Part shown: positions 8,342 through 10,601 of the stretch, one piece after another
Position numbering within the stretch: the first letter of the stretch is position 1
How the letters are laid out: every line of letters begins with the position of its first letter
From: a phage
Sequence record: PZ386975.1
Length of the DNA stretch: 64,000 nt
Strand: one strand, 5' to 3'
Position numbers and translations under genes: made by a program
Notes under the pieces: generated by a model
What the model was told of the DNA's origin: nothing
Databases searched by the model: none
The model's input: the letters and a program-made list of their open reading frames with translations, nothing else

Positions 8342-8890
8342 ATGAAGAAATTGATTCTAGGTTTGTGCTTAATGTTTACAGCACACTTATCTTATGCAGT
8401 TGACTGCCCAGAGCTATCAATTAGCCAAAAAGTAAACATGTTAAAAGCTTACCAGTATGGTGAGAATAACATGGGTAAAGGTTGGGGTATCACTCTAGCT
8501 GCTATAGCCTTACAAGAGTCAGAGTTAGGCCTGAATGTAGAGAATAAAAAGACACATGATTATGGTATCTTCCAGAATCACTTGAAGACTGTTGTAAAGC
8601 GTAACAAAATCAGTCCTAATGTGGCTAAAAAGAAACTCTTAAAAGACTTTGACTATGCTGCGAAGGAAACGCACAAAGAGCTTGAGTTTTGGACAAAGGT
8701 GCATGGTCAGCCAAAGTCAAAGAAGACTTTACAAAAAGTTTTAGCATCTTATAATGCTGGGTATTCGTACAAAATCCCTAAAGCTAAGAAATATTCTCAA
8801 GATGTCTATAACAACATGAAAGCGATTGCTCAATGTGAATTTGCAACAAACATTTCTAAGGTAAATCATGAAAAAATTAAGAAAGTCTGA
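8342..8890 (+). CDS. secreted lytic transglycosylase-like (SLT domain) protein with signal peptide
   Basis: N-terminal MKKLILGLCLMFTAHLSYA signal; SLT-like motifs ALQESELG, GIFQ, SYNAGYS. Confidence 0.55.
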   Translation: MKKLILGLCLMFTAHLSYAVDCPELSISQKVNMLKAYQYGENNMGKGWGITLAAIALQESELGLNVENKKTHDYGIFQNHLKTVVKRNKISPNVAKKKLLKDFDYAAKETHKELEFWTKVHGQPKSKKTLQKVLASYNAGYSYKIPKAKKYSQDVYNNMKAIAQCEFATNISKVNHEKIKKV

Positions 8891-9563
8891 TGAAGTATTG
8901 TGCCATGCTTATGACTTACATCCTCATGAGTTAGGTCTTGATTCCTGTGTATGGACTCCAGAACAGTGCAGGGATTTTGAAGACACAGCAAGAGAAGTTG
9001 TATGTTCACTTGAAGAGTTCCACACAACAGAGCCAATTGTGAATGTTGTAGATAAAGAGACTGGACAAGCTATAGGTGTAAGTCGTGACAGCTTATTCAT
9101 AGTCAATAAAGACCTTGTAGAAAAAGGTAACCTCATCTTAGCAGATATTGATGGTGTTCTTACAAATTTTAATCACGAAGATTGTTCAACGGAATTGACT
9201 GATGGTTCATTTTCACAGTACACTAATCTTCTTGACTCTGTAAGAGCAAAACCAACGTATGTTTTCAATATCATTGATGCAATTGCTAATCATGCTGCCG
9301 TTGGACTCTTGACAGCGAGAGGCGAATCTCAGAGAATACCTACTGAGATGTTTTTAAGGCATAACACAGAGCATGATTATATGCTTTTTATGCGTGGTTT
9401 TGGAACTAACTCTATAAGTGCAGAAAGTTTGAAAGTGAGGATGATTCAGTCTTGCATTCTGCCTTACTTTAATATAGTATGTTTTATAGAAGATACAGAG
9501 AAGAATGTGCAGAAGGTGAACAGAATCCTTCCACACATCAAAACCATGTTAGTTAAACATTGA
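8868..9563 (+). CDS. hypothetical protein (231 aa)
   Basis: ORF in co-oriented block. Confidence 0.5.
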   Translation: MKKLRKSDEVLCHAYDLHPHELGLDSCVWTPEQCRDFEDTAREVVCSLEEFHTTEPIVNVVDKETGQAIGVSRDSLFIVNKDLVEKGNLILADIDGVLTNFNHEDCSTELTDGSFSQYTNLLDSVRAKPTYVFNIIDAIANHAAVGLLTARGESQRIPTEMFLRHNTEHDYMLFMRGFGTNSISAESLKVRMIQSCILPYFNIVCFIEDTEKNVQKVNRILPHIKTMLVKH

Positions 9564-9573
9564 GAGAAAACTT

Positions 9574-10038
9574 ATGAACAATATCATTACGGTAGCACTG
9601 GACGTTACGGCAAACAAATCTGAAGTAGTTCGTAACATTATCAAGAGCAACTTTGAGGGTAAAATCTTCCGTGCTGTCAATGTAAAAGCAGACGGCAACA
9701 TCCGAGAGTATCGTGCTCTTTTGAATGTTAAGAAACACGTCAAAGGTTCTGGTTCAACGACTGCACACAAAGAAAACCTGATGACTATCTATGATATGGG
9801 GATGGCCTCAGAATTAGGTGCTGAAGGTATCGTTAAAGAAGGTGCTCCGTACCGCTCTTTCAATCTGGAAACTGCTCTTATGCTTTCCTTTACAAGTGGT
9901 TCTAAAACAACTACTTATCTCTTTACTGATGCTGCAACGGTATCTGCTATCAAGGATGGCACTGTCAAAGCTGGCGTAGTTGCTGCTGCAAAAGCTTCTT
10001 CGATGGCTGCGAATATCCTTGCTAAAGTCCTCAGTTAA
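9574..10038 (+). CDS. hypothetical protein (154 aa)
   Basis: ORF followed by terminator hairpin 10051-10072. Confidence 0.5.
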   Translation: MNNIITVALDVTANKSEVVRNIIKSNFEGKIFRAVNVKADGNIREYRALLNVKKHVKGSGSTTAHKENLMTIYDMGMASELGAEGIVKEGAPYRSFNLETALMLSFTSGSKTTTYLFTDAATVSAIKDGTVKAGVVAAAKASSMAANILAKVLS

Positions 10039-10090
10039 GGTTAAGATACAGGCTCCTTCGGGAGCCTTTTTCATTTCAGGAGGTTGTTAA

Positions 10091-10438
10091 ATGACATTTA
10101 AAGAGTTCTGTCAAGCTACTTTCATAATTGTTTTCTTAGTTGGGGCAGGTGTCTGGGGAGGATACTCTTACAGAGACTACCAAGTTGCTGAAACTGAGCT
10201 AAACAATCAAAAGCTCATAAGTGTTGCTAAAGATGCTTATCAGGAAGGATTAGTTACACTGAGCACCAATTACAAAAATGATTTGAAAGATGTGCTTGCT
10301 AAGAATAAGCACACAAAAGAGGTACTAACATATGAAAAAACTAAGCCAGAGTTTTATAATGTTTGTGTTACTGATAATTATGTCAGGGTGTTCAACGAAC
10401 AAAGTGAACAGTACATTCAAAAACTCCCAAGTAAGTGA
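10091..10438 (+). CDS. putative i-spanin-like protein (N-terminal transmembrane helix plus coiled coil)
   Basis: strong RBS AGGAGG; TM segment FIIVFLVGAGVWGG; overlapped out of frame by a lipoprotein ORF. Confidence 0.4.
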   Translation: MTFKEFCQATFIIVFLVGAGVWGGYSYRDYQVAETELNNQKLISVAKDAYQEGLVTLSTNYKNDLKDVLAKNKHTKEVLTYEKTKPEFYNVCVTDNYVRVFNEQSEQYIQKLPSK

Positions 10439-10601
10439 GAGTGATAAGTACACTCAAGAAGAATCACGGTATATCATCAAAGGCAACACAGGCAGTGATG
10501 TAGCAGCAGCACTTGAGTTCTACCGTGACGGCTTTTACCAGTGTACAATTAAAGCTAATAACCTTATTGACATGATTTTATTAGGGAATAAGCAGCAATG
10601 A
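10332..10601 (+). CDS. putative o-spanin-like lipoprotein overlapping the upstream gene in another frame
   Basis: lipoprotein signal with lipobox (LLIIMSGC); RBS AAGAGG; Rz/Rz1-like overlapped architecture. Confidence 0.4.
   Translation: MKKLSQSFIMFVLLIIMSGCSTNKVNSTFKNSQVSESDKYTQEESRYIIKGNTGSDVAAALEFYRDGFYQCTIKANNLIDMILLGNKQQ

Follow-up and report, generated by a model that had tools for sequence, protein, structure and literature searches.

Felix O1-like phages have their lysis genes scattered over the genome, and their spanins have been described (Moogle and Meda genome papers; PMC4319497, PMC6486253). No holin was identified in Meda, and the holin of the Felix O1-like phages is uncertain. 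Kongari et al. (2018; PMC6139136) classified the spanins of Felix01, FO1a and UAB_phi87 as an overlapped family. In the PhageMaP gene-essentiality study of the Felixounavirus Bas63, lysis and membrane genes are reported to be mostly non-essential. For a second family that concerns us here, Nolan et al. (2006; PMC1524935) reported a weak SLT match of the T4 gene vs.1 and suggested that it has "some role in cell lysis"; this was the only literature on vs.1 function that we found, and neither for the Vs.1 family nor for this Felix O1 spanin family did we find an experimental test in the literature.

In the present study, we analyzed a stretch of phage DNA of 64,000 nucleotides (hereafter, the window). 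On sequence grounds, the window is a Felixounavirus (Felix O1-like) genome: its region 8000-11000 has about 97% nucleotide identity to many Felixounavirus genomes in a nucleotide comparison. The hosts of its closest relatives are Salmonella, E. coli and Shigella. The window quite probably joins two independent features in this region, a two-component spanin and a Vs.1-family GH23 protein, which do not make up a joint lysis module. The genes at 10091-10438 and 10332-10601 are the sole spanin pair of the window and belong to a single, scattered lysis system of the Felix O1 type. Both features are already annotated in relatives and known, and the discovery value is small, since the spanin pair is a textbook arrangement that SpaninDB and GenBank already contain, and a likeness of Vs.1 to SLT proteins was published in 2006.

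The gene at 8342-8890 (plus strand) encodes a protein of 182 aa, which we assign by phrog_600, fold and motifs to the secreted GH23 (SLT/goose-lysozyme-like) proteins of the Vs.1 family. Residues 1-19 (nt 8342-8398) form a Sec-type signal peptide, and this predicted export signal together with the GH23/SLT fold agrees with the first-pass annotation, which had described an SLT-domain protein with a cleavable signal peptide. At 18.6 bits (E = 1.4e-3), the match of the window protein to the Pfam SLT family (PF01464) falls short of the gathering score of 21.3 bits; seven of eight aligned relatives match the same family (best E = 8.2e-12), and the profile of the Vs.1 family matches goose lysozyme at E = 0.011. 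A single-sequence search against PDB sequences gave no match. PRP4 kinases were the top matches in a profile search and were rejected as spurious, because their alignment has a large gap and none of the catalytic motifs; goose lysozymes stood just below them. Of the best 39 Foldseek matches in the PDB, nearly all belonged to the g-type lysozymes or the GH23-type lytic transglycosylases, and a few were other lysozyme-like glycosidases; in BFVD, the best matches (E as low as 3.6e-8) were phage proteins labelled "SLT domain". The motifs of the protein are E59-S60, G75-I-F-Q78 and S136-Y-N-A-G140. In the family profile alignment, the invariant E59, which is the predicted catalytic residue (nt 8516-8518), corresponds to Glu73 of goose lysozyme, GxFQ to GLMQ, and SYNAG to AYNAG. 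Both alignments show E59, Q78 and S-Y-N-x-G without variation; D73, the Asp before the GxxQ motif, is not conserved among T4-like members. A disulfide probably links C22 and C166. The protein may be a lytic transglycosylase or a hydrolase (g-type muramidase); the sequence fits both, and the choice cannot be read from it.

Homologues of Vs.1 were found by tblastn in 2,128 phage records, mostly of large virulent phages of Gram-negative hosts. In T4-like genomes, the window protein matches, with 32-34% identity over 85% of its length (E from 1e-10 to 2e-12; tblastn), an ORF located between regB and vs. The phiEa21-4 protein gp6 carries the annotation "Vs.1", and PseT comes next to it downstream. 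Like T4 Vs.1 and its orthologues (about 170-205 aa), the window protein is small, begins with a signal peptide, and carries the invariant motifs E-S, G-x-F/M-Q and S-Y-N-A/S-G; 8342-8890 thus represents the T4 Vs.1 family in the Ounavirinae. Members from T4-like phages and Ackermannviridae, and those associated with Campylobacter, have signal peptides as well. The neighbours differ, being regB and vs in the T4-likes and rIIB and a HAD phosphatase gene in the window, and the N- and C-terminal cysteine pair occurs in Ounavirinae and Ackermannviridae members, whereas T4-like members are without it. In Ackermannviridae the gene lies among exonuclease, SSB and DexA genes. At all four T4-like and Ackermannviridae loci inspected, no holin, endolysin or spanin gene adjoined the Vs.1 homologue. 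We also considered Vs.1 and the gene following it as a conserved pair beyond the Ounavirinae and rejected this, the next genes in Matapan and phiA8-29 being unrelated to the window phosphatase (E = 80 and 5.4).

The unit with the SLT-like gene starts after an intrinsic-terminator-like hairpin that follows rIIB (8254-8277, plus strand; stem of 10 bp, TTCG loop and T-run); in phage Meda, a terminator is annotated at this place. The SLT-like gene overlaps by 23 nt the gene of a HAD-type phosphatase (8868-9563, plus strand; phrog_3970, E = 1.7e-133) with a DIDGVLT motif. This protein is annotated "polynucleotide kinase" in relatives; no P-loop was seen in its sequence, and the gene is not a lysis gene. 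Between it and the spanins lies the gene of a conserved hypothetical protein of 154 aa (9574-10038, plus strand; phrog_2267) without a transmembrane domain (TMD) or signal peptide. A GC-rich hairpin with a T-run follows (10050-10067, plus strand; 7-bp stem, TTCG loop), ending 23 nt before the ATG of the i-spanin gene; it is annotated as a terminator in Meda, and Paul and phiEa21-4 have the same layout with different stems. This hairpin lies between the SLT unit and the spanin unit and sets them apart. However, a promoter would not fit between it and the ribosome-binding site of the spanins, so that transcription of the spanin genes would depend on read-through out of the SLT unit; the SLT-like gene and the spanins may then share a transcript, which weakens the argument from separate units. 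The T4-type late promoter TATAAATA occurs in two copies in the window, at 26756 and 27882, and none is near the SLT-like or spanin genes. Matches to sigma-70-like promoters were no commoner than in shuffled sequence (16 versus 14.8, no excess), and therefore no promoter could be assigned.

The first-pass annotation regarded the SLT-like gene and the spanin genes as a second lysis module. On such a reading, the SLT-like protein would be a Sec-exported endolysin of the kind of the signal-peptide or SAR endolysins, acting with the adjacent spanins and either in parallel to the GH24 lysozyme or replacing it. We consider this unlikely. The signal peptide and the GH23 fold are real, a distance of 1.2 kb separates the genes, which share a strand and have rIIA and rIIB directly upstream, and the possible read-through into the spanin genes and the uncertainty about the holin would also fit such a module. 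Some GenBank records furthermore label the SLT-like protein "putative lysin", and the analysis shows that this label is based on the fold alone; bringing out this basis is of some practical value. However, the phosphatase gene, the gene of the 154-aa protein and the hairpin intervene between the supposed partners, and the Vs.1 gene is far from spanin and endolysin genes in T4-like and Ackermannviridae genomes. Because of this context of Vs.1 in other lineages, the proximity of the SLT-like and spanin genes is peculiar to the Ounavirinae, and it is no evidence of shared function. Homologous spanin pairs go with peptidase endolysins, not with SLT proteins: the gene order in Yersinia phage 324 is holin, metallopeptidase, i-spanin, o-spanin, and in Proteus phage RS10pmA two multi-TMD ORFs and a peptidase precede the pair, so that in these two homologue phages the spanins lie within a holin-endolysin-spanin cassette. 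In Kuravirus, the pair adjoins a macro-domain gene, without an SLT gene. Lysis genetics of T4 also argues against a second module, since e, t and the spanin genes pseT.3 and pseT.2 suffice and vs.1 is not known to be needed.

Furthermore, a standard soluble endolysin is present. The gene at 25281-25745 on the minus strand encodes a GH24 phage lysozyme of 154 aa (Pfam Phage_lysozyme, E = 8e-41) without a signal peptide or TMD; Felix O1-like phages have this enzyme as their canonical soluble endolysin. It lies on the opposite strand, 14.7 kb from the stop codon of the o-spanin gene, as the first-pass annotation had placed it (about 15 kb away), and the accompanying suggestion of two muralytic enzymes is consistent with at least two predicted proteins of muralytic fold (GH23 and GH24). 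At this distance, and with no holin-like TMD ORF within 8342-10601, the region does not contain a contiguous holin-endolysin-spanin cassette; what had been called a second module comprises the only spanins of a scattered system and a Vs.1-family gene.

As for the Vs.1-family protein itself, the most probable scheme is that it is exported by Sec, that its signal is cleaved after A19, and that it then probably takes up its fold in the periplasm, where a disulfide would join C22 to C166. Its gene is probably co-transcribed with that of the HAD phosphatase, in an early-type block after rIIA and rIIB. The predicted and most likely activity is limited cleavage between MurNAc and GlcNAc during infection, so that the protein would have an accessory part in wall remodelling and would not be the endolysin of lysis. 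An alternative could be that it is not primarily wall-degrading and serves as an early periplasmic peptidoglycan-binding or regulatory factor, which might exclude superinfecting phages, protect against lysis from without, affect lysis inhibition or release anhydromuropeptide signals. The location in early-type gene blocks in four phage lineages, the predicted conservation of export, and the retention of the gene in so many phage records although these phages have a dedicated endolysin would agree with such a factor, but we judge it quite improbable, because the invariance of the catalytic Glu and of both substrate-binding motifs across the family argues that catalysis has been retained. We tentatively propose that the Vs.1 family is a conserved class of periplasmic effectors acting in something else than end-point lysis, made up of small Sec-exported GH23 enzymes encoded in early-type blocks of T4-like, Ackermannviridae and Felix O1-like phages. 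If this doubtful but possible proposal is correct, controlled wall remodelling, control of superinfection or of lysis from without, or muropeptide signalling might be their function. The remaining biological interest of the region is the role of these very widespread, apparently exported enzymes.

The i-spanin gene (10091-10438, plus strand) starts 1.2 kb past the SLT stop codon. Its product of 115 aa, assigned to the Rz-like spanins of phrog_1152 (E = 1e-41), has an N-terminal TMD followed by a periplasmic domain. The hydrophobic segment at about residues 6-24 (KD 1.75) is the only one in the protein, and thus the transmembrane protein that had been noted within 1.2 kb of the SLT gene is confirmed; all nine homologues inspected have an N-terminal hydrophobic segment. 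Around the invariant C92 the motif is N-x-C-x-[TS]-x-x-Y-x-x-x-F/Y-N-E. A check of the coiled coil that the first-pass annotation had described did not confirm it: an AF2 model from a shallow alignment gave helices at 39-59, 65-79, 85-92 and 95-111 with a mean pLDDT of only 50, and as a low-confidence model it was left out of the evidence.

The o-spanin gene (10332-10601, plus strand) encodes a precursor of 89 aa in the +1 frame and overlaps the i-spanin gene by 107 nt. A ribosome-binding site, AAGAGG, is 8 nt upstream of the start. The signal sequence, MKKLSQSFIMFVLLIIMSG, is followed by C20-S; the lipobox MSG precedes C20 (Cys codon 10389-10391), and Ser occupies +2. Met at -3 of this lipobox is outside the classical [LVI] set, and deviant lipoboxes are documented among o-spanins (PMC6139136). 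The mature protein has 70 aa, with the conserved C71 and a C-terminal Y-x-C...N-x-L motif. By a heuristic search in the six frames, this is the only ORF of at least 50 aa with a lipoprotein signal in the 64-kb window. The +1 lipoprotein ORF is kept in Sf16, phiSUSP1, phiEa21-4, SE5, Arno162, Paul, Yersinia phage 324 and Klebsiella phage phi_KPN_H2 (eight phages), and also, with lipobox and cysteines, in Proteus phage RS10pmA. At 27-35% protein identity, the homologues retain the lipobox (MSGC, MSAC, IAGC, ISAC or TASC), Ser or Thr at +2 in all cases, one periplasmic Cys and the C-terminal motif. Between the window and Sf16 or SUSP1, nucleotide divergence in the overlap is 0.10-0.12, about half that in the flanks (0.22-0.26).

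A chance alternative-frame ORF, with the transmembrane protein alone being made, is highly improbable and effectively refuted by the comparative data: the opposite strand nearby does carry chance alternative-frame ORFs of 84-114 aa, and several GenBank records lack the o-spanin ORF or shorten its start, but the frame, lipobox, cysteine and C-terminal motif are kept in all nine other phages at about 30% identity, divergence in the overlap is halved, the gene has a ribosome-binding site, and the sole lipoprotein signal compares with a mean of 0.08 in 50 codon-shuffled windows. The comparative evidence confirms that the overlapping o-spanin gene is real, as the first-pass annotation had proposed in describing a lipoprotein gene overlapping out of frame. 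Several public records leave the gene out or annotate a start that removes the signal peptide; the correct start is 10332, and the practical value of the analysis lies in this comparative confirmation with the start fixed. The proposed i-spanin/o-spanin arrangement likewise stands, being an overlapped pair of the Felix O1 family whose i-spanin matches phrog_1152 and which is annotated i-/o-spanin in the GenBank records of Meda, VSe11, garuso and others.

The i-spanin would be anchored in the inner membrane via its N-terminal helix, and the o-spanin would be lipidated on C20, its Ser at +2 directing it to the outer membrane. On the model of lambda Rz/Rz1, the periplasmic ends of both subunits may bind each other across the peptidoglycan mesh. 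A holin would release the cytoplasmic GH24 endolysin, the wall would be degraded, and the freed spanin complexes would then fuse the inner and outer membranes as the last step of lysis. For the window pair this fusion step is inferred; seen directly are the spanin architecture, the conservation of this architecture, and homologues in a lysis-cassette context.

Among the known systems, the spanins of the Felix O1 family (SpaninDB; Meda_126/125, VSe11 gp006/007, Moogle) are the same genes as those of the window. In many of these relatives, identity is 97-100% for the i-spanin and 95-100% for the o-spanin; the 107-nt +1 overlap, the neighbours and the upstream hairpin are shared, and the differences amount to no more than a few amino-acid substitutions. 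A homology of the Felix O1 spanins to T4 PseT.3/PseT.2, both pairs being near a pseT-like gene, was considered and is unsupported, no T4-like genome being among the i- or o-spanin tblastn matches and organism summaries listed.

The SLT-like protein, compared with family-1 lytic transglycosylases and goose-type lysozymes (GH23; Slt70, MltC/E/F, EtgA, GEWL), is a single minimal domain of about 12-18% identity and, unlike these enzymes, has no lipid anchor or accessory domains. With the Sec-exported and SAR endolysins it would share the export of a muralytic enzyme without a holin. Such endolysins (fOg44 Lys44, P1 Lyz) are the lysis enzyme of the phage, beside a holin or pinholin. In contrast, the window has a separate soluble GH24 endolysin, and its Vs.1 gene lies in an early-type block.

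The spanin pair resembles lambda Rz/Rz1 in consisting of a type II inner-membrane protein and an outer-membrane lipoprotein whose genes share DNA in different frames, in having periplasmic cysteines in both subunits, and in its presumed role in the last step of Gram-negative lysis (PMC6139136). No similarity to lambda Rz/Rz1 was detectable in any of the sequence searches run. Unlike Rz/Rz1, the window genes are overlapped and not embedded and lie outside any lysis cassette; the i-spanin, at 115 aa, is shorter than Rz, each subunit has one periplasmic Cys, and the mature o-spanin, at 70 aa, is longer than Rz1 and contains zero proline, whereas Rz1 depends on a penta-proline stretch.

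The region 8000-11000 is matched by 259 phage records, the best about 97% identical over its full length, all of which are Felix O1-like myophages (Felixounavirus, Ounavirinae) with Salmonella, E. coli or Shigella as hosts. Felix O1-like sequence is borne by GU169904 ('Staphylococcus phage SA1'; o-spanin 97.8% identical), OK283618 ('Listeria phage LPML1'; o-spanin 50% identical) and two records labelled 'Campylobacter'; the host labels or assemblies of these Gram-positive-host and 'Campylobacter' records look doubtful. On the plus strand, rIIA (4685-7051) and rIIB (7131-8240) are followed by an SLT-like ORF (8342-8890), a HAD phosphatase gene labelled 'polynucleotide kinase' (8868-9563), a gene for a 154-aa hypothetical protein (9574-10038), the i-spanin (10091-10438) and overlapping o-spanin (10332-10601) genes, four small hypothetical genes and a macro-domain gene (11598-12383). 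A cluster of 24 tRNA genes lies at 30037-35292 (+); tRNA genes are known from Felix O1-like genomes, e.g. Bas63. All of the elements that the first-pass annotation placed at 8342-10601, and its GH24 lysozyme, are present; its grouping of the SLT gene and the spanins as a second lysis-type module was not upheld.

The transmembrane protein proposed there is a 115-aa product with a single, N-terminal hydrophobic segment; the AF2 model of its periplasmic domain (pLDDT 50) is too low in confidence to confirm a helical or coiled-coil structure. The out-of-frame lipoprotein gene, of 89 aa, is read in the +1 frame from 10332 and overlaps the last 107 nt of the i-spanin gene, with the ribosome-binding site AAGAGG; its signal is MKKLSQSFIMFVLLIIMSG, followed by C-S, with Met at -3 of the lipobox. 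Since the opposite strand has chance ORFs of 84-114 aa close by, the length of this ORF is by itself little evidence. It is the only lipoprotein-signal ORF in a six-frame scan of the 64-kb window, where 0.08 are expected per codon-shuffled window.

Whether the overlapping ORF is a real gene was examined by comparison. Both proteins were found together by tblastn in 376-407 phage records, and the +1-frame ORF is kept at the same position in all nine diverged loci: Sf16 (Mooglevirus), phiSUSP1 (Suspvirus), phiEa21-4 and SE5 (Kolesnikvirus), Arno162, Paul (Kuravirus), the P2-like Yersinia phage 324, Klebsiella phage phi_KPN_H2 and Proteus phage RS10pmA (Gorganvirus). Each has a lipobox (MSGC, MSAC, IAGC, ISAC or TASC), Ser or Thr at +2, a mature length within 60-72 aa, and a C-terminal motif Y-x-C...N-x-L with one conserved Cys. 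The conserved Cys of the i-spanin is kept within N-x-C-x-[TS]-x-x-Y-x-x-x-F/Y-N-E, a motif whose coding DNA also specifies, in the other frame, the signal peptide and lipobox of the o-spanin. Nucleotide divergence of the window from Sf16 and SUSP1 is 0.10-0.12 in the overlap versus 0.22-0.26 in the single-coding flanks, as dual coding predicts. Homologous pairs lie within classical lysis cassettes of Yersinia phage 324 (holin-metallopeptidase-i-o) and RS10pmA (two multi-TMD ORFs and a peptidase, then the pair), and thus the family is tied to lysis by context.

The SLT-like protein (182 aa) carries, as claimed, a standard Sec signal, MKKLILGLCLMFTAHLSYA followed by VDC, with small residues at -3 and -1. 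A lipobox at this N-terminus is ruled out by the Asp before Cys. The protein itself matches Pfam SLT at E=1.4e-3, below the gathering score, and in PHROGs it is phrog_600, filed as unknown. Nevertheless, the case for an SLT fold is strong. The confident AF2 model (pLDDT 82.8, with low confidence at residues 1-20, as expected of a signal peptide) gave agreeing SLT-type folds in Foldseek searches of PDB and BFVD; E59, Q78 and S136-Y-N-x-G140 are invariant in relatives down to 29% identity; in the family profile alignment E59-S60 falls on the catalytic Glu73-Ser74 pair of goose lysozyme, with GxFQ opposite GLMQ and SYNAG opposite AYNAG; and seven of eight relatives match PF01464, down to E=8e-12. 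The sequence is compatible with either a lytic transglycosylase or a muramidase. Cys22 and Cys166, both also found in Ackermannviridae members, are gained or lost jointly across the family, which would fit a periplasmic disulfide.

Homologues were detected by tblastn in 2,128 phage records, mostly from large virulent phages that infect Escherichia, Klebsiella, Salmonella, Vibrio, Aeromonas and Acinetobacter. The ORF matched in T4-like genomes is flanked by regB and vs, and is T4 vs.1; phiEa21-4 gp6 is annotated 'Vs.1', with PseT next, as in the window. All T4-like, Kuttervirus and Tedavirus members have signal peptides, so that export is a family trait. Nolan et al. (2006; PMC1524935) reported a marginal SLT-domain match in vs.1 orthologues and proposed 'some role in cell lysis'; our literature search on vs.1 function found no functional study.

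The evidence indicates that the SLT-like gene and the spanins do not form one module. Terminator-like hairpins at 8254-8277 and 10050-10067 flank the SLT-phosphatase-hypothetical block, and a third (12413-12454) ends the block that starts with the spanins; such hairpins are annotated in phage Meda as well. Outside Ounavirinae, the neighbours of Vs.1 genes serve RNA and DNA metabolism: in T4-likes they are regB, vs, a macro-domain gene and tk, and in Ackermannviridae exonuclease subunit 2, SSB and DexA. The gene that follows Vs.1 differs between lineages. The spanin family there occurs with peptidase endolysins or next to a macro-domain gene, and no SLT gene accompanies it at the loci in Yersinia 324, RS10pmA and Kuravirus. 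The spanins may still be transcriptionally linked to the SLT block: 23 nt separate the end of hairpin 10050-10067 from the i-spanin ATG, too few for a promoter, so that spanin expression would depend wholly on read-through from upstream, or the hairpin would be an RNA-stability element.

In five genera, Felixounavirus, Mooglevirus, Suspvirus, Kolesnikvirus and Kuravirus, the i-spanin start is preceded at a distance of 10-25 nt, too short for a promoter, by a GC-rich hairpin that has a YYCG tetraloop and a T-run (10050-10090 in the window, 2409-2443 in the Paul locus, 2746-2780 in the phiEa21-4 locus and equivalents in Sf16 and phiSUSP1), with differing stems (AGGCTCC/GGAGCCT, GCCACC/GGTGGC, GGACTC/GAGTCC). 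It is absent from homologues within true lysis cassettes. The decamer TTTCATTTCA directly follows hairpins 10050-10067 and 12413-12454 (at 10069-10078 and 12455-12464), with no other copy on either strand of the window. A macro-domain gene near the spanins or vs.1 is a recurring neighbourhood: this (Tk.4-like) gene directly follows the pair in Paul (2939-3379 of the locus) and phiEa21-4 (3284-4066), lies four small ORFs downstream of it in the window, and follows vs.1-vs in T4-like UPEC01 (3900-4364).

The 'polynucleotide kinase' label looks like an over-annotation. Only a HAD phosphatase motif (DIDGVLT, aa 93-99) was seen in this protein, with no P-loop; in place of a kinase domain, residues 1-90 are rich in Cys and His, and the Meda counterpart is interrupted by a stop codon. 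The GH24 lysozyme was confirmed at 25281-25745 (-), 14.7 kb away (Pfam Phage_lysozyme, E=8e-41). Directly upstream of it on the same strand lies the gene 25745-26377, whose stop overlaps the endolysin start; its 210-aa product ends in an immunoglobulin-like domain (Pfam Ig_3, E=6e-10) and is called either 'tail protein' or 'Ig I-set domain protein' in relatives. No holin was identified in the Meda genome paper. The 167-aa protein of 22433-22936 (-) is a holin candidate, as its gene lies 2.3 kb from that of the endolysin on the same strand; it has two strongly hydrophobic stretches (about aa 82-115 and 124-142), and is phrog_4343, unknown in PHROGs and 'membrane protein' in relatives.

On the analysis itself rest the architecture and conservation of the spanin pair and the fold, motifs and export signal of the Vs.1-like protein. 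The explanation that we favour, and consider quite probable as a whole, is that the spanins would serve as the last, outer-membrane step of a scattered holin/GH24 endolysin/spanin pathway, presumably by membrane fusion as in lambda, and that the Vs.1-like protein, exported by Sec and matured in the periplasm, would make limited cuts in glycan strands during infection, as an accessory function and not as the lysis trigger.

Both the spanin pair and the Vs.1-SLT link are already published. The role of Vs.1 is of modest interest given how very widespread this exported family is, and the window brings nothing special to that question. The pair is labelled i-spanin/o-spanin in GenBank in Meda, VSe11, garuso and many other records. 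The o-spanin start is annotated internally in garuso (3880-4101 of the locus), Sf16 (2814-3008) and SE5 (2814-2987), which drops the signal peptide and lipobox, and the gene is missing altogether from the annotation of other public records; each of these genomes has the full ORF, lipobox included. Felix01/FO1a/UAB_phi87 form an overlapped spanin family in Kongari et al. (PMC6139136), and the Moogle and Meda genome papers (PMC4319497, PMC6486253) describe the endolysin and both spanins as scattered, with no cassette. Unlike lambda Rz1, the mature o-spanin here contains no proline at all; a proline-rich region is also absent from the T4 o-spanin family (PMC6139136).
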